A stretch of DNA of 64,000 bases, taken from Candidatus Kaiserbacteria bacterium. Lineage in GTDB: Bacteria; Patescibacteriota; Minisyncoccia; Phycocordibacterales; UBA2100. Positions within the stretch are counted from its first letter, which is position 1. Every line of letters starts with the position of its first letter. This document shows, piece after piece, positions 7,053 through 55,895 of the stretch. The stretch is taken from assembly GCA_017134395.1 (NCBI GenBank), contig CP070993.1, positions 320,210 through 384,209 on the forward strand, given 5' to 3'. The notes below the pieces were generated by a model. That model saw nothing but the letters and a program-made list of their open reading frames with translations. It searched no databases and was not told the origin of the DNA. A program made the translations under genes and the position numbers.

Positions 7053-7091
7053 ACACAAATATATGGACATCCGATGTCCATATATTTGTGT
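7053..7091. repeat. REP-like hairpin palindrome, family A copy 3 (acacaaatatatggacat-ccg-atgtccatatatttgtgt)
   Basis: 18-bp perfect arms. The outer arm sequence differs from copy 2 (acacaa vs ccccac) but is compensated on the other arm, which indicates selection for hairpin structure. It lies between the convergent RAYT and giant gene. Confidence 0.65.
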
Positions 7092-7095
7092 TGGG

Positions 7096-7135
7096 TTAAT
7101 TAAATTTAATTTAATTTAATCTTATCTTATCTTAT
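7096..7135. repeat. pentanucleotide tandem repeats (TTAAT/TAAAT)x5 followed by (CTTAT)x3
   Basis: ttaat taaat ttaat ttaat ttaat cttat cttat cttat. The last CTTAT unit overlaps the stop codon (7132..7134) and last codon of the giant gene. Confidence 0.7.
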
Positions 7136-33657: not shown

Positions 33658-35889
33658 TTATTGAGATAGCGTACGTATCTCTTCAAGTGCTTGGTCTGCG
33701 ATTACAGTGAATTTTGGATATTCTTTTTTTATGTGCAAAACTTCACTGCGTGCGTTATTTAAATCACCTATTGCGACATATATTCTCGCAAGTGAGAAAA
33801 GTGCACCAACATCGTCTTTTTCAACACTTTCATTTGCCACGAGTGCTTTGGACCACATGTCACGTGCTTGTACATGCAGACCCTTACTTATGAGTGCTGC
33901 GAGTATGTCGGTGTCCCCTGCGTATATAGGTGTTTCGCTTAGTAAAGCAATAGCGTCACTCGCTAAATTAGCCCTAATTAATACATTCGCGTATAAAATG
34001 CGAGCTGATTGATATTCTTTTTCTGCTTCAAAAGAAGTTTTTGCGTATGTGAGAGCGCTTTCCAGATCACCTGAATTTGCAGTCGAAGCTACGAGGAGTG
34101 CCAAAATACGTTGTCTGTCTGGACTGAGTTCAAGAGCTCTTTTGAAATTCTCAGTTGCTTTTGCAAAATCACCAAAACTATAGTGTGTTGAACCAATAAA
34201 GAAAGGGTAGCGTGCATCATTAGGCACACGCTCTTGTTGGTGTGTAAGTGAATTAATAGATGCGTTGTACCATTCGTTCTTTTGTTCTGTAGAAACCCAC
34301 GTAGCTGCGGCTACCTTTCTTGCGGCTTCGCTCCACTGTTCAGCAACCTCTTGCGAACCGTAGGTATCAAATGCGTACGCTTTCTCAAATAATTCTAAAG
34401 CTCTATCTACATTAGATACTGCAGACTCTATACCATTTTCTTGATCTTGATTTGCTTGCAGTTGTGCCACATGTATAGCCGACAAAGCATCAAGTAGTGT
34501 TGTTGATGTACGCCACGGTTGTATGTTTATAAACCATATAGAAATACCGATAGCGAGAACGAGGAGAGGTGCCCCTACTAATACACCAATCTTTTCTGAA
34601 AGAATCAATGTCGTCTGTTCTTTATTTTTCCTAAAGGTCCATACATCATGTGCAGATCCATATATCCATGCGAGTACTGTGAAGAACAGGAGGTAGCTTA
34701 TAACATTATCAAACACTGTTAGGTTATGTATTCCGTACGCAGCGAGTAGCCCTAACAGCAACCACTTTTGGATAATTGTGAAAGCCTCTGTTCTATAGAG
34801 TGTCCATACTGTCGTAAGGAAAATAGAAATATATGTGAGCAACCCAAGAATTCCTGCCGCGATTAACCAGTCAAAAACAACGTTGTGTGTTCTATCGAAC
34901 CACGGTTCTTGACCATACATTCGAGGGTCGTAATACTTATTGAATACGAAGTTGAAGTTCTCTTGACCCCACCCTAGCAATGGCCGCTCCTTAACACCCT
35001 CCCACGCAACTCCCCATATAAGTGTACGAGCGTATACCGTCCCTTCGGAAAGTGAAAGAGTTGCGAACCTTTTAAGAACAGGGCTGTCCTGCACAAATGC
35101 TGTGTCTTTAGCAATCCAAAATGATCCAACACCTAAGACCATGACCACAGTAAGTAAAGCGGCACCAAGCCTAACTTTTCTGTTACCTTTGAGAGATAGC
35201 GAGATTCCAATAACAGCTAGCAACAGTCCCCCAATCACACCAAGTGTTGCACCTCTTGTCGCGGTAAAAAATAGTACGGTAAAGAGAAGCGGTAATGTAA
35301 TGGCAGTAAGAATTTGCTCAGTGCGTTCACTATTGCGCCGTGCTAGTAAAACTAGGGCAATGAAAATATGGAACAAAACGTACACTGCTAAATAAATAGG
35401 ATTTCCCAATGTTGAATCTAAACGACCCTTTTCTGTCAAAAGGAGTTGCCCGATAGCATGCATCGAAACAAATGTGCTGACGACAAGAGATGCGCGCCAA
35501 AGCCATAACCATAGGTTTTGTGTATTCATAACAGCTCCAGCTGCGATTACATACATGAGTGCGTGTATCAACGTCACTAGTCCGTCCATTCTCTCGAAAT
35601 TGCTCCAGATACTTTTAAACGGGTTCTCTCCAAACAAATCAGCCACTGCAACAACCGCCACGAAAGCAAGAATCGATAGTAATAGTGCCGTCCATCGTGG
35701 ACGATACGCAGCGTTGAGTAATGCGAGCAGAATCCAAGCACCAAACATTATTTCAATGATAGAGCGGAAGGCTATATTTTTTCCAACGATGTACGGAAAA
35801 AACGTACTGCCAGAGACAATGAAAACAATCAGTGGCAATGAGAATACACCTGCCAATACAATTCCTCGTAATACCTTCTCTAAATTCAC
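33658..35889 (-). CDS. polytopic membrane protein with an O-antigen-ligase/Wzy_C-like domain and C-terminal TPR repeats (PglL/O-oligosaccharyltransferase-like or O-antigen ligase-like)
   Basis: 743 aa. The N-terminal half has at least 10 hydrophobic helices with FFTATRGATLGVIGGLLLAV (Wzy_C-like). The C-terminal ~300 aa are TPR-like (ALELSPDRQRILALL..., AIGDLNNARSE...). Confidence 0.6.
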   Translation of the reverse strand: MNLEKVLRGIVLAGVFSLPLIVFIVSGSTFFPYIVGKNIAFRSIIEIMFGAWILLALLNAAYRPRWTALLLSILAFVAVVAVADLFGENPFKSIWSNFERMDGLVTLIHALMYVIAAGAVMNTQNLWLWLWRASLVVSTFVSMHAIGQLLLTEKGRLDSTLGNPIYLAVYVLFHIFIALVLLARRNSERTEQILTAITLPLLFTVLFFTATRGATLGVIGGLLLAVIGISLSLKGNRKVRLGAALLTVVMVLGVGSFWIAKDTAFVQDSPVLKRFATLSLSEGTVYARTLIWGVAWEGVKERPLLGWGQENFNFVFNKYYDPRMYGQEPWFDRTHNVVFDWLIAAGILGLLTYISIFLTTVWTLYRTEAFTIIQKWLLLGLLAAYGIHNLTVFDNVISYLLFFTVLAWIYGSAHDVWTFRKNKEQTTLILSEKIGVLVGAPLLVLAIGISIWFINIQPWRTSTTLLDALSAIHVAQLQANQDQENGIESAVSNVDRALELFEKAYAFDTYGSQEVAEQWSEAARKVAAATWVSTEQKNEWYNASINSLTHQQERVPNDARYPFFIGSTHYSFGDFAKATENFKRALELSPDRQRILALLVASTANSGDLESALTYAKTSFEAEKEYQSARILYANVLIRANLASDAIALLSETPIYAGDTDILAALISKGLHVQARDMWSKALVANESVEKDDVGALFSLARIYVAIGDLNNARSEVLHIKKEYPKFTVIADQALEEIRTLSQ

Positions 35890-35971: not shown

Positions 35972-37054
35972 ATGAAAAAAGCACTCATTACAGGAATAAC
36001 CGGACAAGACGGATCGTATCTTGCAGAACTGCTTTTGGAAAAAGGATATGAAGTTCACGGTATTATTCGTCGCTCAAGCTCGTTCAATACAGAACGTATA
36101 GATCATTTATACCAAGGACCTGAAGAAAAAAATCGACATCTTGTTCTTCATTATGGTGACTTAAGTGGAACAACTAGCCTCATTCGCATCATTCAAGAGA
36201 TACAACCTGATGAGATCTATAATCTGGGCGCAATGAGTCATGTAAAAGTTTCGTTTGAAACTCCCGAATATACTGGCGACATTGACGGACTCGGTGCACT
36301 GCGTCTTCTTGAAGCACTACGTATTCTTGGACTCGAAAGGAAAACTCGTTTTTATCAAGCCTCTACTTCAGAAATGTTTGGTGCTAGTAAAGCACCTCAA
36401 TCTCTAGAAACTCCGTTTTACCCAAGAAGTCCTTATGGTGTTGCGAAACTCTATGCTCATTGGACTACTATTAATTATCGCGAGGCCTATGGGTTACATG
36501 CGAGTACAGGTATTCTTTTTAATCACGAATCACCACGTCGAGGTGAGACTTTTGTAACACGCAAGATCACTCGTGCTGCTGCTCGTATAAAACTTGGTGT
36601 TCAGGAAACCTTATATCTCGGGAACTTGGATGCGCTACGCGATTGGGGACACGCCCGTGACTATGTGGAGGGTATGTGGCTCATGCTTCAACAGAATACT
36701 CCTGACGATTATATTCTAGCTTCTGGCGAACAACATAGTGTTCGGGAATTTTGCGAAATTGCATTCAATAGGATTGGTATCGAATTGAAATTTAAAGGAA
36801 CTGGCGAGAATGAAAAAGGTATTGACGTTAAGACTGGTAATACAATTGTGGCAGTTGACCCACGCTACTATCGCCCTACCGAGGTTGAAACATTACTTGG
36901 TGACCCTAGTTACGCTGAACAGAAACTGAGTTGGAAACGCGAAGTTTCTTTTACTCAACTCATTGCAGAAATGGTAGATCACGATATGCATGAAACAAAA
37001 CGTGAACTACACTTAAAAAATGGTGGTTTTGAAGTACGAGCTGATTCGGAATAA
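35972..37054 (+). CDS. gmd: GDP-mannose 4,6-dehydratase
   Basis: 360 aa. [47 protein letters not shown] matches Gmd almost residue for residue, and the catalytic triad region is present. Confidence 0.9.
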
Positions 37055-37075
37055 TTGCGATAATATATAAAGATT

Positions 37076-38014
37076 ATGGAAAAGAACTCAAAAATCTTTA
37101 TAGCAGGACATCAGGGGTTGGTTGGCTCTGCCATTGTTCGCAAACTAGAAACTGAAGGCTATACTAATAGTATTACTCGTACTCGTAACGAATTAGACTT
37201 ACTTGACCAACAAGCTGTGGCTGATTTCTTTGCCAATGAGAAACCAGAGTACGTATTCCAAGCCGCCGCGAAAGTTGGCGGTATTATGGCAAATAAAACT
37301 TATCCTGCTCATTTTATTTATGAGAATCTACAAATCCAGAATAACATCATACATTCTGCGTATGTGAATAATGTGAATAAGCTCATATTCCTTGGTTCCT
37401 CTTGCATTTATCCAAAGATGGCAGAACAACCAATAAAAGAAGATTCCCTTCTCACTGGACCTCTCGAATCGACTAATGACGCTTATGCCATTGCTAAGAT
37501 AGCAGGTATCAAGTTATGTCAATCCTATAATCAACAATACGGCACCAACTTTATAAGTCTCATGCCAACTAATCTTTATGGACCAGGTGATAATTTCGAT
37601 CCGCAGACATCGCATGTACTCCCCGCTTTTATCAGAAAGTTCCATGAGGCTAAAAAGTCAAATATCCCAAGTGTGACGTTATGGGGTAGTGGTAATGCAA
37701 TGCGCGAATTTTTGCATGTTGACGATCTTGCTGATGCTTGTATCCACTTGATGAAATATTATGATGGCACTGAAATAGTTAATGTCGGCACAGGCAAAGA
37801 CATGACCATAAAGGATCTAGCAGCCACTGTACAAGAGATTGTCGGGTATAAAGGAGATATTATCTGGGATACTTCAAAACCAGATGGTACCCCAAGAAAA
37901 CTTCTTGATGTTTCTAAACTTTCTGCACTTGGATGGGAACCTAAGATAAAATTTATGGATGGTATCGTTGAAACGTATGAATGGTTCCAAGTAAATCATG
38001 GACGACATGATTAG
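37076..38014 (+). CDS. fcl: GDP-L-fucose synthase family (Fcl, or the homologous GDP-L-colitose synthase ColC)
   Basis: 312 aa. [34 protein letters not shown] (YxxxK), and [10 protein letters not shown]. It sits immediately downstream of gmd. Confidence 0.85.
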
Positions 38015-39170
38015 ATTGATGGAAAAAAGCTTTTTCAAGAACGAGGAAACTAAAGAGGCATTGATAGAATTCATTAGAAACACTGACCGTTTCAGTATGG
38101 GTCAACAATGCGCAGAATTTGAAACTGCTTTCGCAAAATGGCAGGGACGTAAGTATGCTGCTTTTGTATCAAGCGGTAGCATGGCTAACTTAGTCCTTAT
38201 TCAATCGCTCCTCAATAGTGGAAAATTACAAAAAGGTGACAAAGTTGGGTTTTCAGCTGTTACTTGGCCAACCAATGTGATGCCGCTTTTACAGCTTGGC
38301 TTAGAACCTGTGCCACTTGATTGTGAATTAGACACACTTAATACTTCAAGTGCTCAGTTAGTTGAATTGTTATCGCACACCGACCTGAAAGCTTTTTTTA
38401 TAACTAACGTACTTGGTTTTGCTGACGATATTGATACGATTACGAATATATGTAGAGAACGAGGTATCCTTCTCATTGAAGACAATTGTGAATCTATCGG
38501 AACTAAACTCAACGATACAAAACTAGGAAATTTTGGTCTAGCATCAACATTCTCTACTTTTATCGGACACCACCTCTCTACGATTGAAGGTGGTGTCGTC
38601 TGCACTGATGATGAAGATTTATACCATCACTTACTTATGTGCCGTGCTCACGGCTGGGATAGAAATTTACCTGAGCAATACAAAAATGACCTGCGCTCAA
38701 AAAATGACGTGGATGACTTTTATTCACTGTATACCTTTTATGAACTTGCTTACAATGCTCGCCCAACGGAAATCCAGGGGTTCTTGGGAAATCATCAGAT
38801 TCAATACTTAGACCAGATGATTGAGCAGAGACATCTAAACTTTGAAGAGCTGAATGCGGCAGTAATTAATGCTGGAGCAATAGGGATTAATTCTAGTCAC
38901 CTTTCTCTCGTTTCAAACTTTTCAATTCCAGTCGTCTTTAAGGAAATTGAACCATTTGAAATACTCAGAGATCTTTTTATTAAGAATGGAGTAGAGATTA
39001 GGCCGATTATTGCCGGCAATATATTAAATCAGCCATTTTATAAAAAGCAGGGCTTGCATTCTTCACGATTGCCAAATGCTGAAATCATCCACAACAATGG
39101 CTTCTATTTTACAAACCGGCCTGATCTTACAAATCAAGATAAAGATCTGCTTATAAAAATTCTTTCTTGA
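37998..39170 (+). CDS. DegT/DnrJ/EryC1-family PLP enzyme with His-His in place of the Schiff-base lysine. This makes it ColD-like (GDP-4-keto-6-deoxy-D-mannose 3-dehydratase), not an aminotransferase.
   Basis: 390 aa. It has the DegT fold motifs ([24 protein letters not shown]). At the position of the PLP lysine (FSF..xK....GEGG) the sequence is [15 protein letters not shown], with H191/H192 at nt 38568..38573. The ColD active site uses a histidine here (established knowledge). The gene follows gmd and fcl and overlaps the fcl stop. Confidence 0.55.
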
Positions 39171-39182
39171 ATATAAATTTAT

Positions 39183-40190
39183 ATGCCTTCTTACACCTTT
39201 AACTACATTGTTACAATCCACAATAAACAAGACCTAATTGAGTCAGTGATGATGGGTTTGATCAGCAGCTGTGGAGAGAATAGTACAATCTACCCTGTCC
39301 TTGATGGCTGCACTGATGACACTGAAAAAATTATAGATGGTTTGATAGAAAAAAACAAAAATATTTCTATAAAGAAAATATACGCCCCCGATGTTCATGA
39401 GATAAAATCAATAAACTTAGCACTCAAACAAATACCTCAAAAAGGCAAAGCGTTAAATATAACGCTGCAGGATGATGTTATTTTGTCTGACAAAAATCTG
39501 GAAGAGAATTTGGCAAAAATCTATGATGAGCTTGGGTTTGAAAATGTTGGGACACTTAGTTTCCGACATGGCACAAGCTTAATCCTCGATCATCGTAAGA
39601 AAGAAGTTCGAGAAAAAGGTTTAATTGAGAGTTGTTTTGGTGTAGGTATGTCAAATACGATACTCCTCCCTTATCACCTTGTAGAACGGATGGTGAGTGT
39701 CCGTAGCCCTGAGTGTATTTCAAGCTACGTACTAGAAAATGTTGGATATCTAGATGAAGCACTTGCCCCCTACACTTGGGATAATCACGACCTCTCGATA
39801 CGATGTCTTAAAAAGGGCTTGCGTAACTTTGTTTTTGCTCTCCCTTTTGTTTCTGATGTTCAATGGGGCGGTATGCGCACGAACCCTCATCCAGAATTTG
39901 ACCGCATTCAAATTCGTAATAAACAGTATCTTTATAATAAACATCATGATTTTTTGATGCAGTTTAAAAAAACAAACAGATACCTTGAAGTACGTCTGGC
40001 ACAACCATTCTTACTGACCACTCTTATCACTGACCAGTCACCCGTGATTATTGATGTAATTAAAAATTACCAATTGAAGCGTTCACAATTACTAAACTCA
40101 AAATGGAAGGAATTCTATATTGATGTAATCAGAAAAAATTTGCGTGATTTATTTTACACTTTATTGAGGGTTAAAAGAATCTTCGGGTAA
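39183..40190 (+). CDS. putative GT2-like (GT-A fold) glycosyltransferase
   Basis: 335 aa. The N-terminal region reads YIVTIHNKQDLIESVMMGLISS...IYPVLDGCTDDTEKII, which is GT2-like (nucleotide-binding D..DD pattern), and there is a QDDVIL motif. The assignment is weak. Confidence 0.4.
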   Translation: MPSYTFNYIVTIHNKQDLIESVMMGLISSCGENSTIYPVLDGCTDDTEKIIDGLIEKNKNISIKKIYAPDVHEIKSINLALKQIPQKGKALNITLQDDVILSDKNLEENLAKIYDELGFENVGTLSFRHGTSLILDHRKKEVREKGLIESCFGVGMSNTILLPYHLVERMVSVRSPECISSYVLENVGYLDEALAPYTWDNHDLSIRCLKKGLRNFVFALPFVSDVQWGGMRTNPHPEFDRIQIRNKQYLYNKHHDFLMQFKKTNRYLEVRLAQPFLLTTLITDQSPVIIDVIKNYQLKRSQLLNSKWKEFYIDVIRKNLRDLFYTLLRVKRIFG

Positions 40191-40277
40191 ACTTCTCACA
40201 TGAGTATTTTGTGGGTCAAAAACAAAAATATAGAAGGTTATCTGTATGTTTACGTCGTATTCTAAAAAACGCCTAAA

Positions 40278-41549
40278 ATGAAAAACTTACTAAAAACGAA
40301 AATGCCATTCTCTTTTTATGGCTTGAGACGTTACGCTGGCAGTGCTGGCTGGTCACTTTTCGGCAAATTAATAACCATGAGCATTGGTTTATTTGCCACA
40401 CTTTATATTGCCCGAGCACTTGGACCCACCAATTTTGGAGAGTTGAGTTACGCGCTTAGTTTCATTGCCTTATTCTCCTTTATTGCTTCGCTAGGCATCG
40501 ACAACGTTCTCTACCGAGAACTTGTAAAAAACCCAGGGCAGAAAAACTTTTTGCTAGGATCTGCTCTCGTCATCAAGCTCACTACCGGTAGCGGTGCGGC
40601 TGTATTAGCAATTCTCACTGCCTGGATATTATCGTCTCCTGATGTTTCTTTACTGCTCATCGCCCTCTTGTCTATTACCTTCATAAGTCAATCTGTATTT
40701 TTTATAAGTTATGAATTTGGCGCAGCAGTCAAAGCACGTGCAGTCGCTTTGCTTTCAATTTTTGTTGTTATCGTTATCAACTTTTTAAAAATTGGTGCTA
40801 TTTACTTAGGTGGCGGAGTTATTTACTTAGCGATCATCTTAGTGTTTGAATCCTTGCTCTATGCAATAGGATACATATTCATCCGTCAAAGAACTTTCGG
40901 TACTCTTAGAGAATGGAAATTTGACCTTTCGACCACCAAAGGTTTATTGATAGATTCATGGCCATATATGTTTATCACTGCCTTCGCTCTGATATACTCT
41001 CGCGTCGATCAAGTTCTACTTAAAAACTTGATTGATTCAACTGAAGTCGGTTTATACGATGCTGCTGTCCGATTGAGTGAATTGTGGTATTTTATCCCGA
41101 CACTGCTGGCAGGATCCTTGCTCCCTGCGCTTATTAATGCAAAACAGCATTCATTAGAAGATTATATTCACCGTTTTATTTTACTCATTCTTCTTTCTTT
41201 TGGATTAGCCGTTTCTATCGCTATTGGTGTTTATTTACTTGCGCCAACTATTGTCCACGTAATTTATGGTCCTGATTTTGTAGGAACCGCCGGCATTTTA
41301 CGCATCTACATCTGGGCACTTATACCAATGTCGCTAATAATTGTTATTAATCAATTTTTCCTTGCTGAAAATGAGCGTTTTATGATATTTGTTTCGGCTT
41401 TTTCCGGCATGTTTATTAATATTGTGGCAAATATTTGGCTCATCCCACTTTATCAAGGGATTGGTGCTGCTATAGCTACTCTTATATCAAGCTGTGTAAT
41501 GGTTGCTGTTTCCACGTTGTTGTACGTAGTATACAAAAGGTTATCATGA
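40278..41549 (+). CDS. Wzx-type oligosaccharide flippase (polysaccharide biosynthesis protein, MOP superfamily)
   Basis: 423 aa with about 12 predicted TM helices. The N-terminus SLFGKLITMSIGLFATLYIARALGPTNFGELSYALSF is typical of Polysacc_synt/Wzx. Confidence 0.7.
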   Translation: MKNLLKTKMPFSFYGLRRYAGSAGWSLFGKLITMSIGLFATLYIARALGPTNFGELSYALSFIALFSFIASLGIDNVLYRELVKNPGQKNFLLGSALVIKLTTGSGAAVLAILTAWILSSPDVSLLLIALLSITFISQSVFFISYEFGAAVKARAVALLSIFVVIVINFLKIGAIYLGGGVIYLAIILVFESLLYAIGYIFIRQRTFGTLREWKFDLSTTKGLLIDSWPYMFITAFALIYSRVDQVLLKNLIDSTEVGLYDAAVRLSELWYFIPTLLAGSLLPALINAKQHSLEDYIHRFILLILLSFGLAVSIAIGVYLLAPTIVHVIYGPDFVGTAGILRIYIWALIPMSLIIVINQFFLAENERFMIFVSAFSGMFINIVANIWLIPLYQGIGAAIATLISSCVMVAVSTLLYVVYKRLS

Positions 41550-41598
41550 GCTTATATTGTTTTAAGGAAACAAAAAGTATTATAATCCACCCCTAAAT

Positions 41599-42471
41599 AT
41601 GAAAACCTCCGACACACGATCGATTGTCACATCTGCCTCTAACAAATTTTTTCCATCTGTTTTAAATTTAATTGGTTCGATAAAAGAAAATTACGAAGAA
41701 CATCCACATATCTACGTTTGGGATCTTGGCTTATTTCCAACATTTCGTTACGAACTTGCCACTATTGACGGGGTCACTGTCGTACCAATGCCCCACTTCA
41801 ATTCTTTTTGGAGGAAATGCTACACATGGAAAACATATATTTTTACTAAACCATTCACTGACATAACTTTATATTTGGACGCCGGTACGCAAGTCTTACA
41901 GCCACTCGATGAAGTGTTTGCGCAAATTAAAAAAGATGGATATATAGCGGTCGGACAAGACATCTCGTGCGAATTGCTAGTGCCACGTGAGTACATAACT
42001 ACCCTTTCAATGCGTGTACCAGAACTCCAAAAAGAAGTTGTCACCGCTGGAATATTCGGTTTCTCTAAGCATTACGCTGACATACAGAAAGTGATCGAGG
42101 CCACGCATGACGCATCTTTATGTGGACTCTGTCTTGGATTTTCCCCCAGTGAACAATGGAAAAATAAACGTCCGAACAAGACTTTTTTTGTAAGAGATTG
42201 TAAGTTATTTCGACACGACACTACCTTACTGAGCGTTTTTCTCCACAAAATAATGCCTGACGCTAAAATAACCGACCTATCTTTATTTTCTGCTGAAAGA
42301 CATGGTGGAGAACAATTTGTCTGGAACCTGCGTTTACTGTACTCAAAACTTGATTACATCTCTCCTAGTTATACCAAATCAAAGAAACATGTTATCACTT
42401 TGATAAATAGAGCGTATGTGCAAGTATTCTTTATCCTAAAGAGAATTAGTAAAATAGTTAAAAGAAACTAG
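41599..42471 (+). CDS. hypothetical protein of the glycan island (possibly a GT-A-fold glycosyltransferase)
   Basis: 290 aa with no confident motif. It lies in the operonic context between wzx and GT2 genes. Confidence 0.3.
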   Translation: MKTSDTRSIVTSASNKFFPSVLNLIGSIKENYEEHPHIYVWDLGLFPTFRYELATIDGVTVVPMPHFNSFWRKCYTWKTYIFTKPFTDITLYLDAGTQVLQPLDEVFAQIKKDGYIAVGQDISCELLVPREYITTLSMRVPELQKEVVTAGIFGFSKHYADIQKVIEATHDASLCGLCLGFSPSEQWKNKRPNKTFFVRDCKLFRHDTTLLSVFLHKIMPDAKITDLSLFSAERHGGEQFVWNLRLLYSKLDYISPSYTKSKKHVITLINRAYVQVFFILKRISKIVKRN

Positions 42472-42474
42472 GTT

Positions 42475-43173
42475 ATGTCTATTTCAATCATTATTTCAAT
42501 GTATCGTACTGATCAGCATCTTGATAGATTTTTGTATGATGCCACGAAATTGAGTCATGCCTTGAAACTGGCGAAAGTCGATCACAACTTCATTTTAATT
42601 GTTAATGACGGGACTAAAAAAGAAAGGTCTGCATTGGCTAGTCTCGCAAGTCAGTTCAAAGTTTTGTTTGTTGAACGCGAACCAATCTACGCTAGTTGGA
42701 ACAGAGGGGTAAAGGAAGCTGAAGGGAAATTTGTTACCTTCTGGGGAGTGGACGACACTCGTTTTGGCGAGGCAATTATTGATGGTCTCAACGCCCTACA
42801 AAATAGTAGAGCAGATATTGGTTACTTCCCCTTCCGTTATCATCGATTCGTACAAGTATTCGGTTTGAAAATCTTAGCAAAAGTAAAAACATTTACCCCA
42901 CCAAAATTTGAAAAAGAACGTTTTCTTAAAGAAATGCACCTTGGCCCACACTTTATAGCACGGCGCTCGCTTTTTGAGCGCGTCGGTTACTTCGATGAAT
43001 CATTTAAAATCGCCGGTGATTATGAATTCCAAACAAGAGCAGTTAAAGCGGGCGCTTACCTTATACGCATCTTATCTATCAGTGGAATATTCCGGAACGA
43101 CGGGACTACCCTTTCGGGTTCCCGTAATAAATTGCAAGCAGAAGAAAATGAACGAGCAACTGTATACATATGA
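42475..43173 (+). CDS. GT2-family glycosyltransferase
   Basis: 232 aa. ISIIISMYRTDQHL...FILIVNDGT is a GT2 N-terminal nucleotide-sugar binding pattern. Confidence 0.5.
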   Translation: MSISIIISMYRTDQHLDRFLYDATKLSHALKLAKVDHNFILIVNDGTKKERSALASLASQFKVLFVEREPIYASWNRGVKEAEGKFVTFWGVDDTRFGEAIIDGLNALQNSRADIGYFPFRYHRFVQVFGLKILAKVKTFTPPKFEKERFLKEMHLGPHFIARRSLFERVGYFDESFKIAGDYEFQTRAVKAGAYLIRILSISGIFRNDGTTLSGSRNKLQAEENERATVYI

Positions 43174-44096
43174 AAACTATTACACTCCTCCCTGTAAAAA
43201 ATGAAGCTTGGATACTTCCCTACACATTAGAAAATTTTTCCCAATTCTCTGATCATATTATTATTGCAGACCAGCATTCTAGCGACGGATCTCGAGAGAT
43301 ATACAAACGATTTCCTAAAGTATCAGTTATCGATAACAACTCAACCGGTGCTTCAAATAAGATACGCTGGCGATTACTGAGAGAGGCACGTAAAATCCCT
43401 GGGAATAACCTCATTATCTGCCTCGACGCTGATGAGCTCCTTTCTCCAAAAGTAGTTAGAACAATGAAAAAATTAAGTAACGGAAAAGCCATTTCTTTCC
43501 AAGCTAATTGGATACAATTAATAGAAGATGGGACGAAATACAGGATTGACGGTGTATGGAAAGATAGTGTAAAAGAGTTTGCCTTTATTGATGATAGACT
43601 AAGTGTACAATACGACGAAAAAGAATTGTTGATTGACCATACGGCTCGCATACCAAGTATCAAAACTCAATTCAAAGTGGAGTATCCGATATTGCACCTC
43701 CATTATATGGCAAAAGCGCGTTCTGAAATAAAGCAGGTATGGTATATGTGTATAGAATTGCTTAATGATGTCAAACCATTCCGCATTAATCACCGTTACG
43801 CTGCTGCAAAATTCAAAAACATTATATCAGCACCCATTGAATCAAAATGGGTAGAAAATATCACCATGCCTCCTTTAGATGTTTTCGCTGATACTTACGC
43901 AAAAAGACGCGACGAAGTCTCTGATATGTTCGTAGAGAAAGGTATACTGTATTTTGAACCGCTCGATATTTGGCACATCCCCGAATTACGGGACTTATTT
44001 ATAAAAGAGGTTGGGCGTGAGCCCAAACCATCTTTGGCACCAAGATGGTTATTAAGGCTCAATGATATAAGAAATGCGCTTAAAATAAAGAAATAA
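43170..44096 (+). CDS. putative glycosyltransferase (GT-A-like, DxD motif)
   Basis: 308 aa. ITLLPVKNEAWILPYTLENF...HIIIADQHSSDGS...ICLDADELL. Its start overlaps the upstream stop by 4 nt. Confidence 0.4.
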   Translation: MKTITLLPVKNEAWILPYTLENFSQFSDHIIIADQHSSDGSREIYKRFPKVSVIDNNSTGASNKIRWRLLREARKIPGNNLIICLDADELLSPKVVRTMKKLSNGKAISFQANWIQLIEDGTKYRIDGVWKDSVKEFAFIDDRLSVQYDEKELLIDHTARIPSIKTQFKVEYPILHLHYMAKARSEIKQVWYMCIELLNDVKPFRINHRYAAAKFKNIISAPIESKWVENITMPPLDVFADTYAKRRDEVSDMFVEKGILYFEPLDIWHIPELRDLFIKEVGREPKPSLAPRWLLRLNDIRNALKIKK

Positions 44097-44138
44097 AAGT
44101 TAGCCTACTAAACTTCAAATCGTTCATAGACATTTACA

Positions 44139-45392
44139 ATGAGAAATCTTACTAAGAAAATACTGCTCGTACTACCCCATTCTGCACGAATATTGGCACT
44201 TAGGATACGCGAATGGTATTGGCGAACACGGATGCTACGGTGGGAGAAAAAGCAGTACCCTAACCTACCGGATCAAACCCATCCTAACCAACATGTCAAA
44301 AATATTCTTGTTTATCATATTACTGGCCTAGCATTTGCTGGCACAGAAAAATGCCTCCAATTGATAGCTAGTTCTCTCGCGAAAGAATACAAAGTATTTT
44401 TTGTGTATGGTGAAAAAACTAGTGCCGAAGAGCGAAAGCAAACGATGCATCCTGATATTACCTTCATACCATTTTCATACAAAACTTCTGAACTTGCAGT
44501 CCCTCATCGTATCACCGAAATGCAACCACATATTAAAAATATTTTGTCTGAGCATGCTATTGATTTGATTGTTACCGCCAGCCCTGGCTACTCTCACTAC
44601 CCCTGGAATGTAATTACTAACGTCCCAATAATCCTCATAAACATTTTTGGAGCTCCTACGTTACAGAAAAATGTACGCAAATTCATTAGCATATCAGATA
44701 CCGTTCGTTTGCATGCCGAAAAATGGACGGGTAAATTATCTGACCGTGATATCACTATGTATGCACCCTTGGCAAAGTTACCACCTGAAAATATTACTGA
44801 AATGGGTCGTGACCTAAGAGCGAAATTAAATATTCCGGAAACTGATTTTGTGTTTGGACGTATTGGACGCAATGATGACAGTATCTTTGATCCAATTGGC
44901 ATACGAGCTTGGCAAAGAATTGCACCGGAGTATCCAAACGTTCATTATTTAATAATGTCACCACCTCCAGTACTAGTTGATTTAGTTAAACGCGAAAATA
45001 TACCACGTGTGCACTTCGTACCTCAAAGTGCATCCGAAGACGCTGTATGGGCTTTTCATGGGGCTATTAATTCTATGGCACATTTCCGGCGAGATGGCGA
45101 GACAAGTGGCGTAGCTATTGCTGAGTCACTTATAGCGGGTAATCCCATAATTACCCACCGTTCACATATTTGGAACGCACACCTAGAGTATCTTGATGAT
45201 TCTTGCGCCTTGATTGCAGGGCTTGATAACGTAGATGAATACAGCCTACACATGAAGGCATTTTTTGAAATATTTAACAAACAACCTTCAAAATGGTCAA
45301 ATATGTGTGCCGCTGCTCGAACAGTCGGAATGGATAAATTTTCTCCTCACACATATTCTGTTAGAATGAGGGAGATAGTGGCTACTATCTAA
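44139..45392 (+). CDS. GT4-like (GT-B fold) glycosyltransferase
   Basis: 417 aa. The C-terminal GETSGVAIAESLIAGNPIITHRS resembles the GT1/GT4 E..(G)...E.a.G.P.I. motif. Confidence 0.45.
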   Translation: MRNLTKKILLVLPHSARILALRIREWYWRTRMLRWEKKQYPNLPDQTHPNQHVKNILVYHITGLAFAGTEKCLQLIASSLAKEYKVFFVYGEKTSAEERKQTMHPDITFIPFSYKTSELAVPHRITEMQPHIKNILSEHAIDLIVTASPGYSHYPWNVITNVPIILINIFGAPTLQKNVRKFISISDTVRLHAEKWTGKLSDRDITMYAPLAKLPPENITEMGRDLRAKLNIPETDFVFGRIGRNDDSIFDPIGIRAWQRIAPEYPNVHYLIMSPPPVLVDLVKRENIPRVHFVPQSASEDAVWAFHGAINSMAHFRRDGETSGVAIAESLIAGNPIITHRSHIWNAHLEYLDDSCALIAGLDNVDEYSLHMKAFFEIFNKQPSKWSNMCAAARTVGMDKFSPHTYSVRMREIVATI

Positions 45393-45398
45393 TCATCT

Positions 45399-46508
45399 AT
45401 GAAAAATAAAAACTTCTGGTTTGGAAAGAGAGTATTAGTTACTGGGGCTGATGGGTTTGTAGCAGCTCACCTTATCAAGAAACTAATTGACAACGATGCT
45501 GTGGTAATTGCCACTGTAAGACATAAGCGTTCGCTGAAAACCCTTGATTTATTACGGGAAGGAAAAGTAGCCAACCAACCAGATATGGAGTACTGTGACC
45601 TCCTTGATTATGAAGAAATCAGACGCGTATGTGATCGTCATCAAATCGATACTATTTTCCACTTAGCCGCTACAGCTATCGTAAGTGATGCTGCTAATGC
45701 ACCGATGTCCACGATTGAGAATAATGTTATGGGAACGCTTAACGTACTTGAAGTTGCCCGTATCAACAACATACCCCGTGTGTTGATTGCTTCTTCTGAT
45801 AAATCTTATGGTGATCACACTACTGATAAATATGAAAAACTCCCCTACAAAGAAAACTATGCTCTGCGTGGTCTAGATGTGTATAGTTCGTCAAAAGTGT
45901 GTTCTGACATGATCGCTCAAACCTACGCTTTTCAATTTAAGCTGCCAGTCATGATTTGCCGTTCAAGTAATATTTATGGACCGGGAGATATGAATTTCAC
46001 TAGACTTATTCCTCGTACAATAATGCGCTTGATGTCTGATAAGCCTCCAGTTATTAACACTGGGAATGAGAATGTTTTGCGTGAATACATTTATGTAGAG
46101 GATGTTGTGGATGCCTATATGTTGATGGCAGAACAAGCAGAAACCTACTATGGCGCTGATCATAAAAATATACCGCGGGACGGAGTTGATACATATGGTT
46201 GGCCAGCATTTAATGTTGGTTCTTACACCAAAAAGGATTTGATTGACATTAATAAGTGTTCAAGCATCAAGAGCGTTAATTCTCTTATAAAAATACTGCG
46301 TGAAAAAGTACGAGATATAGAACCAAATATTATTCCCAAGCCATCAAATTTTATTGAAATACCTGATCAGTATATTGATGCATCAAAGTTGTTTGATTTG
46401 GGATTTAAGCCAAAAGTATCTTTCGAGGAGGGTATAGAAAAAACAACGGCCTGGTACAAGAAAAACTTCTCAAAACTTGAGCCGTTAGCTGCCAAGTACT
46501 TAGAGTAA
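45399..46508 (+). CDS. NAD-dependent sugar epimerase/dehydratase (extended SDR; CDP/NDP-hexose 4,6-dehydratase-like)
   Basis: 369 aa. The Rossmann motif is VLVTGADGFVAAHLIKKL and the catalytic motif is YSSSKVCSDMIAQTY (YxxxK). Confidence 0.75.
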   Translation: MKNKNFWFGKRVLVTGADGFVAAHLIKKLIDNDAVVIATVRHKRSLKTLDLLREGKVANQPDMEYCDLLDYEEIRRVCDRHQIDTIFHLAATAIVSDAANAPMSTIENNVMGTLNVLEVARINNIPRVLIASSDKSYGDHTTDKYEKLPYKENYALRGLDVYSSSKVCSDMIAQTYAFQFKLPVMICRSSNIYGPGDMNFTRLIPRTIMRLMSDKPPVINTGNENVLREYIYVEDVVDAYMLMAEQAETYYGADHKNIPRDGVDTYGWPAFNVGSYTKKDLIDINKCSSIKSVNSLIKILREKVRDIEPNIIPKPSNFIEIPDQYIDASKLFDLGFKPKVSFEEGIEKTTAWYKKNFSKLEPLAAKYLE

Positions 46509-46516
46509 AGTCTGGT

Positions 46517-47341
46517 ATGCGAGAAATATTTTTTAAACTAATCTCACTGCTCAATAAAGTTACGGGCAAAAAGTTTTTATACATTACCCCAAATCAGTAT
46601 AATGATCTCGGGAAAACTGCCGTCTGGTGTGACCTTGGTTTCTGGTATGTTGGCAATGTTTACAATAATTCTGACATAGCTTACGGTATTGCTCAGAATG
46701 GTGTAGTAGAAAAAGAAGATACCAGCTTAGTGACAAGTATACTTAACACGCTTGACTCCCCAACCGTATACGATGTAGGTGCTAACACTGGTTACTATGG
46801 CATTCTTGCTGCGACAAAATTTAATGCGTCAGTCTATGCTTTCGAGCCTATACCAGATTATATCTCTTGTATAAAGGAATCTTCACGAATCAACAGAGTA
46901 GAGGATAGGGTCACTACACACGCCCTCGCTCTTGGTGATCATGAGTCAGAGCTTGACCTGAATTTATCTGGTTCCGGCTCCACTCTCGCTAAAGATTTCC
47001 TTGGTGATATCACTACTCCACACATGTCCGTAGCTGTTAAAACGCTGGATTCGCTTGATCTTCCTCCGCCAGATTTTATTAAAATTGATGTTGAAGGATA
47101 TGAGTGGGAGGTGCTACAAGGTGCATATAAAACCATTTCTCGTTACAAGCCTATCTGTTTTATTGAGATAGCTAGAACATTGTCTGAACGGAATTTTATA
47201 CACCCTCATTTCGAGGACATTGTAGAATTTTTTGAAAAAATCGGATACAAAATAGAAAGAAATACTAAGAACGGCTTAGTTCCCATTGATAATGTGTCAG
47301 ATGGTGTGTCAATGTACCTTTGTAAGCCTTCAAAACAATGA
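46517..47341 (+). CDS. FkbM-family SAM-dependent methyltransferase
   Basis: 274 aa. VYDVGANTGYYGILAA...VYAFEPIP...FIKIDVEGYEWEVLQG is the FkbM-domain pattern. Confidence 0.7.
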   Translation: MREIFFKLISLLNKVTGKKFLYITPNQYNDLGKTAVWCDLGFWYVGNVYNNSDIAYGIAQNGVVEKEDTSLVTSILNTLDSPTVYDVGANTGYYGILAATKFNASVYAFEPIPDYISCIKESSRINRVEDRVTTHALALGDHESELDLNLSGSGSTLAKDFLGDITTPHMSVAVKTLDSLDLPPPDFIKIDVEGYEWEVLQGAYKTISRYKPICFIEIARTLSERNFIHPHFEDIVEFFEKIGYKIERNTKNGLVPIDNVSDGVSMYLCKPSKQ

Positions 47342-48228
47342 TCCTCACTATTTATACTCATAGCAGTTCGCCTTTTTCAAGAGAATTTTGGAAATCTTTG
47401 GTGCAGAAAATTAGTGGTAAATACTCAGGGCCAAATGCTGTACGAGATAGTTTACTTCGTGGCCTTGAGGAAAACGGGATCGATTATGAACTAAATCCAG
47501 CTAAACCTAGTGGGGATACCGTTTTAGTACTTTCGGGTGTTGAGGCGCTTAAAAATGCAATTCGTGCTAAAGAACGTGGAGAAATAAAAAGACTTATTGC
47601 AGGCCCAAATATAGTTGTCACTCCACATGACTCGAATTGTTTAATACACGCCAATGCTATTGATACAATCTTAGTCCCATCGCAATGGGTTGCTGACTTT
47701 TGGAAACGCGAAGCAGCAGAACTTTCGGAAAAAATATTTGTATGGACAGCAGGTGTTGCTATAAAAAATCCAAGCTCACGAGCTGGCGCCCCTGTTATAT
47801 ACGATAAAATGAGGAGCAAGGAGTTACTTACTATAGTTGATGAAGTTGTTAAAAGTACTGGCAAAATCCCTAACGTCTTCACCTACGGAACATATAGACA
47901 TTCTACATATCTTGAAGCTCTTTCTAATGCGCCGTATCTTATTTACCTTGCACAGTCAGAAAGCCAAGGCCTCTCTCTACAAGAGGCCTGGTCATATAAT
48001 GTTCCAACTTTTGTTAACAAAAGTACAAAGTGGGAAAATAAAAACTACTCTTTTGAATCAACACAAATAAATGCGCCGTATCTTACTAACCAGCTAGGTG
48101 GTATATTTGGCAACAAGAACGAACTTTCTTCGCTTATAGCTGATGCAAAAACCTTCAATCCTAAGCACTATTGCGACGAGCGCTTGTCTGATGGTATCAG
48201 CACAAAAACCTTACTTACTGTACTATGA
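47338..48228 (+). CDS. hypothetical protein, possible GT-B-like glycosyltransferase
   Basis: 296 aa. The only hint is weak: the C-terminal PYLIYLAQSESQGLSLQEAWSYNVPTF resembles a GT1 E..G....EA...G.P motif. Confidence 0.3.
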   Translation: MILTIYTHSSSPFSREFWKSLVQKISGKYSGPNAVRDSLLRGLEENGIDYELNPAKPSGDTVLVLSGVEALKNAIRAKERGEIKRLIAGPNIVVTPHDSNCLIHANAIDTILVPSQWVADFWKREAAELSEKIFVWTAGVAIKNPSSRAGAPVIYDKMRSKELLTIVDEVVKSTGKIPNVFTYGTYRHSTYLEALSNAPYLIYLAQSESQGLSLQEAWSYNVPTFVNKSTKWENKNYSFESTQINAPYLTNQLGGIFGNKNELSSLIADAKTFNPKHYCDERLSDGISTKTLLTVL

Positions 48229-48965
48229 AAAAAGCTGTAAAAAAGATACTTCGAATAGTGCAAATACCTTTTATATTTCTGGATTTTTTGCGTTTCCGTA
48301 AAAATAATACCGACAAACGGTTCGTATCAAAAATCTCTAATGCTTACCCGTGTATTAAAGATAGGACTGTGAAAACTGGGTTTGATAGGCACTATGTGTA
48401 CCATACCTCTTGGGCAGCGCGCGTATTGAGAGAAATTAACCCAAAAGAACATACAGATATAGCATCGAGTCTCTTTTTTTCTTCTATAGTCTCTGCCTTT
48501 ATACCTATAAAATTTTTTGATTATAGACCTGCGGATCTAGAATTAGATAACTTGGAAACAGGATCGGTTGACCTTACACGTTTAGATTTCGCTGATGACT
48601 CTATTCCTTCTCTTTCTTGCATGCATACTCTTGAACATATAGGGCTCGGCCGTTATGGTGACCCAATCGACCCAGAAGGCGATAAAAAAGCAGCAAAAGA
48701 ATTAGCCCGAGTAGTCTCTGAAGGAGGTTCACTTCTTTTTGTAGTCCCTATTGGAGAAAAGGCGTTAATCGAATTTAATGCTCATCGCATCTACACGTAT
48801 ACTCAAGTTCTTGAATTATTTCCAGGCTTAGAGTTAGAGGAATTTTCTCTCATTCCTGAATATTCAGAAAGAGGCGGCTTAATAAGAAATGCTGATCCGG
48901 CTCTACTGGAAGGAGAACATTATGCCTGCGGTTGTTTTTGGTTTAAGAAGCCAAGAAAAAATTAA
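48225..48965 (+). CDS. putative class I SAM-dependent methyltransferase (DUF268-like)
   Basis: 246 aa. LSCMHTLEHIG and GGSLLFVVP are consistent with a methyltransferase fold, but the match is weak. Confidence 0.35.
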   Translation: MKKAVKKILRIVQIPFIFLDFLRFRKNNTDKRFVSKISNAYPCIKDRTVKTGFDRHYVYHTSWAARVLREINPKEHTDIASSLFFSSIVSAFIPIKFFDYRPADLELDNLETGSVDLTRLDFADDSIPSLSCMHTLEHIGLGRYGDPIDPEGDKKAAKELARVVSEGGSLLFVVPIGEKALIEFNAHRIYTYTQVLELFPGLELEEFSLIPEYSERGGLIRNADPALLEGEHYACGCFWFKKPRKN

Positions 48966-48966
48966 G

Positions 48967-49839
48967 ATGATTATCGTTAATGTTAAAGGAGGGTTGGGAA
49001 ATCAAATGTTTCAGTATGCGCTGGGTCGTAAGCTTTCTTTGAAAACCAAGCAACAGCTTAAACTAGACATTACTACATTAAAAAGGGTTGATAGCGGTAA
49101 AGATACGCATCGTTCGTTTACTCTTGATGCGTACACTATAGAAAAAAATATAGCTGCTGCAGAAGAAATACAACGTCTCAAGTATCCATACGGACTATTT
49201 TCGAAAGCACTACGTTGGTTTACATGTAAGATACTACGAAACACGAACACAGGGTTCGAACCCGCTGCTCTCTTAAAGAAAGGTGATGTGTACTTAGATG
49301 GATACTGGCAATCACCAAAATATTTTGAAGATATTCGCGACGTGTTACTCGAGGATTTCCAGCTCACAACACCATTATCAAAAACGGTTGTATCATATTG
49401 TGCAAAGATAGATCATGGAGCATCTGTTTCTGTTCATATTCGTCGTGGCGACTACGTAAAAAATCCGCGCGTTTTGAAAGAATTTGGGATCTGTTCAAAG
49501 ACTTATTACCAAAAAGCTGTTTCGTATATACAAGAACATGTTACCGAGCCTTCTTTCTTTATATTTTCAGATGATATTGCTTGGGTAAAAGAAAACATAC
49601 CTTTGCCCAATAGTACAACATACGTTTCTGACCCCGCCCTTTCGGCTGAAGAAGAACTCATACTTATGAGCAGATGTTCCCACAATATCATAGCCAACAG
49701 TACGTTTAGCTGGTGGGGCGCATGGCTTAACCAAAATCGAGAAAAGATTGTGATCGCCCCCACTCCTTGGTTTAATGAAAACAATCATCTTTTTAAAGAT
49801 TTGATTCCTGATTCATGGATACAATTACCGAGAAATTAA
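48967..49839 (+). CDS. GT11-family alpha-1,2-fucosyltransferase-like glycosyltransferase (may transfer fucose or colitose)
   Basis: Starts at the ATG at 48967 (MIIVNVKGGLGNQMFQYALGRKL). Both GT11 hallmarks are present: GGLGNQMFQYA near the N-terminus and ANSTFSWWGAWLN near the C-terminus. Confidence 0.8.
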   Translation: MIIVNVKGGLGNQMFQYALGRKLSLKTKQQLKLDITTLKRVDSGKDTHRSFTLDAYTIEKNIAAAEEIQRLKYPYGLFSKALRWFTCKILRNTNTGFEPAALLKKGDVYLDGYWQSPKYFEDIRDVLLEDFQLTTPLSKTVVSYCAKIDHGASVSVHIRRGDYVKNPRVLKEFGICSKTYYQKAVSYIQEHVTEPSFFIFSDDIAWVKENIPLPNSTTYVSDPALSAEEELILMSRCSHNIIANSTFSWWGAWLNQNREKIVIAPTPWFNENNHLFKDLIPDSWIQLPRN

Positions 49840-50603
49840 ATAAACGCCCATTGGTAAGCATCTTGATGCTTACGTATAATCGAGCGCATTATATACCTGA
49901 CGCTATTGAAAGCGTGTTGGCACAAACATATCAAAACTGGGAATTAGTAATTATTGATGATGGCTCAACAGATCACACTGAAAGTGTTGTACTGTCTTAC
50001 AATGACAGTCGTATACAATATAAAAAGCATGCAAAAAACGAAGGTTTGTTTGTGCGCAGGCAGGAATCACTTACGTACGCAAACGGCCACTATGTCGCCG
50101 TTCTTGATAGTGATGATATATGGAGCTCTCCTCTAAAACTCGAACAGCAAGTACTGCTCCTAGAGAATAACTTAGACCACGTTCTGGTTGGTACTTTTAT
50201 TACAGTAATCGACGCAAAAGGAAATGCTGTAGGTAAGGATTCTTATCACATAACTGATCAAGATATAAGAAATAAGGTGCTCATTCGTAACCAATTTACT
50301 CATTCTAGTGTTCTCATTCGTAAAACAGCCCTTGATCAAACAAAGGGATACCAACCAACACTTGCAGAAGATTTAGAACTCTTTTTACAACTTGGGAAAT
50401 TTGGGGAGTTGGCAAATATTCCAGAATTCCTTACAGAACACAGAGTTCATAAAGAAGGTACGAATGATTACGGTATTGAAATGGCACACGCATTACGCGC
50501 AATTATAAAAGCTCACGATAATTATCCTCACTCGCATATAGCATCACTTAAAAACTTTTTCCGCATTCTTATTGGGTACGTAAAATTATACTTGCCGCAC
50601 TAG
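49815..50603 (+). CDS. GT2-family glycosyltransferase
   Basis: 262 aa. VSILMLTYNRAHYIPDAIESVLAQTYQNWELVIIDDGSTDHT is the classic GT2 N-terminus, and there is a DSDD motif. Confidence 0.8.
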   Translation: MDTITEKLNKRPLVSILMLTYNRAHYIPDAIESVLAQTYQNWELVIIDDGSTDHTESVVLSYNDSRIQYKKHAKNEGLFVRRQESLTYANGHYVAVLDSDDIWSSPLKLEQQVLLLENNLDHVLVGTFITVIDAKGNAVGKDSYHITDQDIRNKVLIRNQFTHSSVLIRKTALDQTKGYQPTLAEDLELFLQLGKFGELANIPEFLTEHRVHKEGTNDYGIEMAHALRAIIKAHDNYPHSHIASLKNFFRILIGYVKLYLPH

Positions 50604-51754: not shown

Positions 51755-51756
51755 AC

Positions 51757-55570: not shown

Positions 55571-55627
55571 AACGATAAGTATATCGTACTTCCTTTGTGC
55601 ATATATAGTATTAATCCCCGCCGTGCT

Positions 55628-55665
55628 ACGCACGGCGGGGACTTTTGTGGTAGTTTTCACGTATC
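55628..55665. terminator. GC-rich hairpin (ccccgccgtgc-tac-gcacggcgggg) followed by a T-rich tract. It is a candidate intrinsic terminator or attenuator between two minus-strand genes.
   Basis: 11-bp perfect GC stem with a 3-nt loop. On the plus strand it is followed by acttttgtggtagttttc. Both neighbouring genes are on the minus strand, where the U-tract is weak, so the strand assignment is uncertain. Confidence 0.35.
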
Positions 55666-55895
55666 GAGATGATGCAATACTGCACCAAGAAGCACCGCTG
55701 CGGCAAACAGCACAATTACCAGAAGCAGCGCCCATTTCTCCAAAAAACCATTTAGTCTTGAGAAATCATGGCTCGCTTCCCTTATGCTTTCTCTGATTTG
55801 ATACTCTTCGTCTAACCTCATCACTGGGCACCTCCGTGCTTAAATTAGATATCTATCTGAAAACTCTACCTTAGTTCAAGCTAACACAGCACTTA

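Follow-up and report, generated by a model that had tools for sequence, protein, structure and literature searches.

We analyzed a 64,000-nucleotide (nt) stretch of DNA from a Candidatus Kaiserbacteria bacterium (contig CP070993.1, positions 320,210 to 384,209; this whole stretch is referred to as the window and its first letter is position 1), which contains three consecutive genes for nucleotide sugar enzymes that together point to the synthesis of GDP-L-colitose (GDP-3,6-dideoxy-L-galactose). An initial annotation made from the DNA letters alone had proposed this pathway and had placed the three genes at 35972-39170; we found the open reading frames (ORFs) at exactly these coordinates, all on the forward strand, and translation of positions 38538-38600 bears out the position that it had given for two adjacent histidine codons in the third gene. 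The features of the module are as follows:

35972-37054, + strand: gmd (ORF1), encoding 360 residues; identified by the ORF call together with matches to TIGR01472 and PF16363.
37076-38014, + strand: Fcl-type gene (ORF2), encoding 312 residues; 3,5-epimerase/4-reductase for GDP-4-keto-6-deoxymannose, identified by NF047922.
37998-39170, + strand: ColD-type gene (ORF3), encoding 390 residues in the longest ORF; predicted pyridoxamine 5'-phosphate (PMP)-dependent nucleoside diphosphate (NDP)-4-keto-6-deoxyhexose 3-dehydratase.
38568-38573, + strand: codons of His191 and His192 of ORF3.

All three genes had been described as overlapping; this is correct for fcl and colD and incorrect for gmd and fcl, which are separated by a gap of 21 nt. 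The fcl/colD overlap depends on the start codon of colD: the longest ORF gives 17 nt, a start at Met4 (position 38007), as in most homologues ('MIKL...'), gives 8 nt, and a start at Met8 (position 38019), as in the 383-residue NCBI model, leaves no overlap. With the Met4 start, the His in the catalytic position would be numbered 188, the same as in Escherichia coli ColD. A scan of the locus for promoters and terminators revealed no enrichment over shuffled sequence.

The first gene is gmd, as initially annotated. Specifically, ORF1 scored 580 bits (E=1.5e-174) against the Gmd equivalog model TIGR01472, which is well above the cut-off of 415 bits, as well as 498 bits against PF16363, and it is 63% identical to both Gmd copies of E. 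coli.

ORF3 belongs to the DegT family (PF01041; 184.6 bits, E=4e-54), and among proteins of solved structure it most closely resembles ColD. Its sequence is 100% identical to an NCBI protein of a Candidatus Kaiserbacteria bacterium (687,746-bp contig), which places the window in the Patescibacteria (CPR). In a Foldseek search of the PDB with an AlphaFold2 model of ORF3 (pLDDT 94.5), the top 12 matches were all ColD chains (TM scores of 0.86-0.89), followed by E1 and aminotransferases. Similarly, the best PDB matches in a phmmer search were four ColD entries (E=1e-64 for 2gms to 2e-63), ahead of E1 (3bcx; E=2.5e-32), a putative NDP-hexose 3-dehydratase (9wvy; E=1e-31), and perosamine synthases, which matched over the N-terminal half only (E=2e-22). 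ORF3 thus groups with ColD and not with the perosamine synthases; the latter grouping is the one that the initial annotation had named as a possible contradiction.

The Schiff-base lysine position of this fold (FSFxxxKxxxxGEGG) had been read as His in ORF3, and HMMER alignments agree with this reading in that the first His of the 'GHH' motif (H191) aligns with His188 of ColD. Because mutant ColD chains carrying H188N, H188K, or S187N/H188K (structures 3b8x, 2r0t, and 3gr9) differ from the wild type exactly in this column, the assignment is unambiguous; moreover, the alignment to ColD shows no Lys near H191, and the His-His pair is not offset from the catalytic position. This column contains His in all 205 family members that we compared (ORF3, the 80 GTDB loci described below, 120 database matches, and proteins from E. 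coli, Paracoccus, and others). The remaining ColD active-site residues that we compared, D159, E162, S183, and R219, align with D162, E165, S186, and R222 of ORF3, which are conserved in 205, 202, 205, and 204 of the 205 proteins, respectively, and at least 70 positions of the dehydratase family are invariant across phyla. R219 of ColD, the counterpart of R222, presumably has a role in GDP binding. ColD Ser187 is replaced by Gly190 in ORF3, at a position that varies among dehydratases according to a preprint. Based on these alignments, H191 is predicted to take the place of the Schiff-base lysine and to serve as the catalytic base.

The initial annotation considered the replacement of this lysine by His to be the defining feature of ColD. 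This did not hold up: because the same replacement is common to E1 (RfbH/AscC) and SpnQ (PMC8987622), it is not defining for ColD alone. In E1 and SpnQ, four cysteines additionally hold a [2Fe-2S] cluster, and the stretch of ORF3 that aligns with the cysteine cluster of E1 (3bcx; 'rdCyCapgCdntC') contains no Cys. In addition, ORF3 scored 189.6 bits against the RfbH/E1 model NF011936, below the cut-off of 423 bits, with E. coli ColD itself scoring 263 bits on the same model, and Pfam scans of the surrounding glycan cluster identified no E3-type or ferredoxin-reductase-like gene. The lack of the iron-sulfur (Fe-S) motif, the low RfbH score, and the lack of an E3 gene in the cluster together argue that ORF3 is a ColD-type, Fe-S-free 3-dehydratase, with ColD as its closest solved relative by sequence as well as by predicted fold. 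That its substrate would be a GDP-sugar rather than another NDP-sugar is suggested by the gene context, i.e. by gmd in the same operon.

ORF2 had been assigned to an Fcl/ColC family of reductase-epimerases, and of these two affiliations only the first stood. ORF2 scored 512 bits (E=5e-154) against the NCBIfam Fcl equivalog NF047922 (cut-off 500 bits) and matched E. coli GMER (PDB 1bws) with E=3e-125. S108, C110, Y137, K141, and H180 of ORF2 align with S107, C109, Y136, K140, and H179 of GMER, which we take to be the Ser/Tyr/Lys triad of short-chain dehydrogenases/reductases (SDRs) and the Cys/His acid-base pair for C5 epimerization. In a neighbor-joining tree of Fcl and ColC proteins (200 bootstraps), a ColC clade comprising proteins from E. 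coli, locus L074, and Paracoccus plasmids (L084 and L091), all of which adjoin a ColD gene, was recovered with a bootstrap value of 100% and ORF2 fell outside of it. Because ORF2 in addition shares 60% identity with E. coli Fcl and 40% with E. coli O55 ColC, which are 39% identical to each other, we rejected the possibility that ORF2 is a ColC orthologue. We equally rejected the opposite possibility that ORF2 is provably only an Fcl, because in the same tree canonical Fcl proteins, the group of the window protein, and the group from gmd-colD-fcl loci did not separate from each other (bootstrap values ≤35%). Fcl proteins of loci that lack a ColD-like gene in the fetched ~4-kb flanks share 55-63% identity with ORF2, and Fcl-type proteins encoded next to a ColD-like gene share 52-62%. 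Scores on NF047922 were 551 bits for E. coli Fcl, 389-480 bits for ColD-adjacent Fcl-type proteins of other phyla, and 304-310 bits for ColC-type proteins (304 bits for E. coli ColC). Because the canonical Fcl of a NodZ/gmd/manC cluster on a Dinoroseobacter plasmid (L089:4001-4942) scored 463 bits, and thus below 500 bits, the cut-off of this model is no clean functional divider.

By sequence, then, ORF2 is an Fcl-type enzyme. The ColC reaction, which consists of C5 epimerization and C4 reduction and has reportedly been assayed with ColC from Yersinia pseudotuberculosis, forms part of the Fcl reaction, and from this chemistry and the gene linkage we infer that ORF2 would act as a GDP-L-colitose synthase. 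ORF2 may make GDP-L-fucose too; because it is indistinguishable from true GDP-fucose synthases, it would probably do so from Gmd product that escapes the ColD-type enzyme.

To determine how the dehydratase gene is embedded in other genomes, we used a scan of GTDB species representatives, which gave 586 confirmed relatives. The best 80 of these are 47-57% identical to ORF3, except for one conspecific at 96%, and, judging by record titles, 48 of the 80 are from lineages of Patescibacteria, among them the cultured Minisyncoccus archaeiphilus (L029); four are from DPANN archaea and the others are from organisms including Streptomyces, Flavobacterium, Chitinophaga, and various metagenome-assembled genomes (MAGs). 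For 63 of the best 80 loci, which extend 2.5 kb or more to either side of the dehydratase gene, we counted neighbors within 3 kb of this gene: gmd was present in 34/63, an Fcl-type gene in 31/63 (within 300 nt in 27), both genes in 25/63, and at least one of them in 40/63. Two gene orders were observed, i.e. gmd-colD-fcl, which is found in the majority and also on a Streptomyces plasmid, and gmd-fcl-colD, which is found in the window, in four further loci (L003, L017, L072, and L080), and on a Paracoccus plasmid. Overlap of stop and start codons is frequent in the dehydratase cassettes of Patescibacteria, DPANN archaea, Streptomyces, and Flavobacterium, and in three loci (L072, L078, and L079) a GT11-family glycosyltransferase gene lies directly 3' of the dehydratase gene. 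The recurrent coupling in both orders is our main argument that the Fcl-type enzyme acts downstream of the dehydratase. These data do not support the suggestion in the initial annotation that the pathway would be unusual in a small-genome bacterium: many of the 48 Patescibacteria loci carry gmd as well as fcl and, at the gene level, small-genome lineages commonly have the cassette.

We note that a MAG assigned to Saganbacteria (L057) contains two Fcl-like genes (3619-4560 and 7060-8004); a divergent one adjoins gmd and an Fcl-type one overlaps the ColD-like gene. This locus could represent a natural example in which fucose and colitose have separate reductases.

Based on the ColD-type His, the lack of an Fe-S motif, and the linkage to gmd and fcl, our working hypothesis is that the three-gene module synthesizes GDP-L-colitose; we regard this as the best explanation and assign it a probability of roughly 0.65. 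In this pathway, Gmd would convert GDP-D-mannose to GDP-4-keto-6-deoxy-D-mannose. Next, ORF3, using PMP and no Fe-S cluster, would expel the C3 hydroxyl group with His191 as the general base; hydrolysis of the resulting enamine would yield GDP-4-keto-3,6-dideoxy-D-mannose and PMP would be regenerated from L-glutamate. The Fcl-type SDR would then epimerize C5 and reduce C4 to give GDP-L-colitose, which the GT11 enzyme encoded downstream in the operon would likely transfer, and Wzx-like and Wzy_C-like proteins would export and attach the glycan.

Several observations weigh against this hypothesis. First, ORF3 is only distantly related to the characterized enzyme. It is 37% identical to E. coli ColD, and dehydratases of the window type in general are 31-38% identical to it, whereas the ColD-like proteins of Paracoccus plasmids are 56-61% identical; accordingly, sequence comparison places ORF3 in what appears to be a large sister clade, separate from the E. 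coli/Paracoccus-type ColD, and we know of no assayed member of that clade. This family is large, with more than 6,800 database proteins matching ORF3 at E≤1e-20. Second, ORF2 exceeds the cut-off of the Fcl equivalog and lies outside the ColC clade. Third, in 14 of the 63 loci the dehydratase gene has neither gmd nor an Fcl-like gene within 3 kb, and three of these 14 that were examined instead have a canonical DegT aminotransferase gene next to it (L009:9883-10989, L045:9200-10306, and L058:9185-10303, each following the dehydratase gene; PF01041, 297-387 bits). The dehydratase family is therefore not tied to one end product, and such dehydratase/transaminase pairs suggest that the product is a 4-amino-3,4,6-trideoxyhexose and not colitose. 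Fourth, gmd-fcl is itself the standard fucose pair, so that linkage to gmd could account for some of the linkage to fcl. Finally, Pfam scans of window ORFs turned up neither ManC nor ManB, which would supply GDP-mannose.

Of the alternatives to GDP-L-colitose synthesis, the one that survives best, and which we nonetheless judge unlikely, is that Gmd and ORF2 provide GDP-L-fucose for a GT11 fucosyltransferase and that ORF3 works in another branch leading to a 3-deoxy sugar other than colitose. In that case, ORF3 would deoxygenate C3 of either the Gmd product or an NDP-4-keto-6-deoxyhexose made by a second SDR in the operon, and a different reductase or aminotransferase would finish the synthesis. 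The score of ORF2 above the Fcl cut-off fits this alternative, as does its identity of 55-63% to Fcl proteins from loci without a ColD-like gene, including the NodZ fucosylation cluster, and so do the relatives in which an aminotransferase gene instead of an Fcl-like gene follows the dehydratase gene. The operon does contain an extended SDR resembling NDP-hexose 4,6-dehydratases, but the score of this protein falls far short of each 4,6-dehydratase cut-off, and Pfam scans of the cluster identified neither a nucleotidyltransferase for another NDP-sugar nor a second DegT gene. Further arguments against a separate branch for ORF3 are the overlapping or abutting ORF2 and ORF3 genes and a pairing that recurs in two orders across distant phyla.

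We consider it very improbable that ORF3 is an E1-type enzyme (RfbH/DdhC/AscC), i.e. a CDP-4-keto-6-deoxyglucose 3-dehydrase for sugars of the abequose, tyvelose, paratose, or ascarylose type. The RfbH model is the best NCBIfam match of ORF3, the JGI label on many ORF3 homologues is 'CDP-6-deoxy-D-xylo-4-hexulose-3-dehydrase', and E1 likewise has His for Lys; yet ORF3 reaches 190 bits of the 423 bits required by that model, on which ColD itself scores higher, its PDB match to ColD is much stronger than that to E1 (E=1e-64 versus 2.5e-32), and the cysteine cluster is absent. In addition, the glycan cluster lacks an E3 reductase, a CDP-glucose pyrophosphorylase, and a recognizable CDP-glucose 4,6-dehydratase, and the usual neighbor of the dehydratase gene is gmd. 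For these reasons (RfbH score, cysteine cluster, and gmd context), we rejected an E1-type function. Least probable of all is that ORF3 is a sugar aminotransferase such as GDP-perosamine synthase, as its DegT/DnrJ/EryC1 fold and its generic NCBI name 'DegT aminotransferase family protein' might imply, or a catalytically dead paralogue, because His replaces the Schiff-base lysine in 205/205 proteins and the match to perosamine synthase is weak and covers half of the length, which led us to reject the former, and at least 70 invariant positions across phyla argue against the latter.

The module is located at the head of a surface-glycan operon of ~15 kb, in which 15 co-oriented genes span 35972-50603. 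The following features accompany it:

33658..35889, - strand: Wzy_C/O-antigen-ligase-like membrane protein with C-terminal TPR (PF04932, 69.6 bits, and TPR families).
39183-40190, 42475-43173, 43170-44096, and 49815-50603, + strand: glycosyltransferase family 2 (GT2)-like genes (Pfam).
40278-41549, + strand: Wzx-type flippase (Pfam).
41599-42471, 44139-45392, and 47338-48228, + strand: three ORFs of 290-417 residues without a Pfam match.
45399-46508, + strand: extended SDR of 369 residues (Pfam; compared with the PDB).
46517-47341, + strand: FkbM methyltransferase (Pfam).
48225-48965, + strand: DUF268-like gene (Pfam).
48889..49839, + strand: GT11-family glycosyltransferase (PF01531, 140.8 bits versus a gathering score of 23.9).
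50600-51754, - strand: GT4 gene (Pfam).

The GT11 protein shares 35% identity (E=3e-47) with the GT11 protein of the E. coli O55 O-antigen region (L002:11227-12099), which we take to be WbgN, and it is a candidate alpha-1,2-colitosyl/fucosyl transferase. Its longest ORF reaches 77 nt into the preceding gene; because alignments to homologues begin at residues 25-27 and leave the first ~24 residues unmatched, the true start is probably further downstream. The divergently transcribed Wzy_C/TPR protein is a possible polymerase or ligase for the glycan, and the three ORFs without a Pfam match may encode novel glycosyltransferases or a polymerase. The second SDR (45399-46508) resembles dTDP- and CDP-glucose 4,6-dehydratases, with 143-149 bits on models whose curated cut-offs are all far higher and a best PDB match of E=4e-30; Pfam scans detected no nucleotidyltransferase near it or elsewhere in the cluster, and no gmm gene in the cluster. 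The GC content is 0.38-0.40 in the cluster (38000-52000) and 0.42-0.45 in its flanks, which is consistent with horizontal acquisition, as for many mobile glycan clusters.

Elsewhere in the window, a single ORF of 5970 residues (7132-25044, - strand) has two Pfam domains, Peptidase_S74 (an endosialidase/tail-fiber intramolecular chaperone) and a bacterial surface Ig-like domain near the C-terminus, and its N-terminal 2985 residues have no Pfam match; the product may be a giant surface or adhesion fiber. ORFs for IS200-like Y1 transposases (PF01797; 6352-7002, + strand, and 53078-53770, - strand) flank the region that contains this giant ORF and the glycan cluster. The second of these is adjoined by genes for a TrwB/TraG-like coupling ATPase (53834-55735, - strand) and an HHH/PKD/lamin-tail protein (51757-53097, - strand).

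Colitose has been experimentally shown in lipopolysaccharide (LPS) or capsule of Gram-negative bacteria, namely E. coli O55/O111, Salmonella, Y. pseudotuberculosis, Vibrio cholerae O139, Aeromonas trota, and Colwellia 34H. For a verrucomicrobial endosymbiont whose genome is tiny, the pathway (ColD/ColC) has been deduced from the genome, and a survey of genomes regards colitose as widely distributed across the phylogeny. A search of our literature library for colitose together with Patescibacteria, candidate phyla radiation (CPR), Saccharibacteria, or TM7 returned no paper. In two related plasmid cassettes, the dehydratase is named a generic DegT aminotransferase family protein by PGAP and its partner 'GDP-L-fucose synthase'; because of such names, the potential to make colitose would be invisible in thousands of genomes.

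If GDP-L-colitose synthesis by the module is correct, a 3,6-dideoxy-L-hexose would be added to the predicted surface chemistry of Patescibacteria, of which the envelopes and host-attachment glycans are, to our knowledge, almost unstudied. As such bacteria commonly carry this cassette, we regard the locus as a sound annotation rather than a surprise. More tentatively, and with some doubt, we speculate that most environmental colitose cassettes may pair a distinct ColD-like clade with an ordinary GDP-fucose synthase and have no dedicated ColC. Fcl would then be naturally bifunctional for fucose and colitose, and colitose would be displayed on episymbiotic Patescibacteria and DPANN archaea, neither of which is known to have LPS. 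If so, colitose is perhaps a determinant of host recognition or phage evasion that spreads horizontally among ultrasmall cells. This also raises the testable enzymological question of whether canonical Fcl enzymes are colitose synthases, and the cassette in the cultured M. archaeiphilus makes a test in the wet lab feasible.

Finally, we compared the module with known systems. GDP-perosamine synthase Per (3bn1, 3dr4) has the same fold as ORF3 and uses the same Gmd product that we propose as substrate in the window; in contrast to ORF3, with its His and its weak match to the N-terminal half (E=2e-22), Per retains the catalytic lysine. E1/E3 systems (RfbH/DdhC/AscC; 3bcx) and SpnQ have in common with the predicted function of ORF3 the fold, the His for the lysine of pyridoxal 5'-phosphate enzymes, and the chemistry of C3 deoxygenation. 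They differ in their [2Fe-2S] motif, in their E3 or ferredoxin partner, and in a CDP-glucose context where the window has gmd. The GDP-L-fucose pathway (Gmd and Fcl/WcaG/GMER, as in the colanic acid cluster of E. coli; 1bws, 1e6u) matches the module in the adjacency of gmd and fcl, in the 60% identity of ORF2 to Fcl, and in the catalytic residues; canonical fucose loci, however, lack the ColD-type dehydratase gene that in the window appears translationally coupled to fcl.

The closest counterpart is the GDP-L-colitose pathway of E. coli O55/O111 and Y. pseudotuberculosis (Gmd, ColD/WbdK, and ColC/WbdJ), which is said to have been described by Alam, Beyer & Liu in 2004. Searching E. coli genomes at the DNA level yielded no colD relatives, and a gmd-fcl-colD query recovered only the colanic-acid gmd-fcl pair. 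The O-antigen region of E. coli O55:H7 (L002) was instead reached by walking from metG in NC_013941, and the two genes that correspond to ORF3 and ORF2 are located there as follows:

L002:3701-4867, - strand: E. coli O55 ColD.
L002:4864-5787, - strand: E. coli O55 ColC.

The same region also holds the GT11 gene wbgN, the O-antigen gmd, and the colanic-acid gmd-fcl pair. In contrast to the O55/O111 systems, the window has a dehydratase of 37% identity to ColD that belongs to a separate clade and has Gly190 for ColD Ser187, an Fcl-type reductase from outside the ColC clade, and a cluster without manB, manC, and gmm. Moreover, Patescibacteria are not known to have LPS; if they lack it, the glycan acceptor would be something other than an O-antigen on lipid A-core. 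Despite these differences, the window and the O55/O111 pathway share the same three enzyme families, the His at the position of ColD His188, and the lack of an Fe-S motif; with E. coli O55 specifically, the window shares the order of colC (in the window, fcl) followed by colD, which overlap by 4 nt in O55, and a cluster that includes a GT11 gene related to that of O55 (WbgN).

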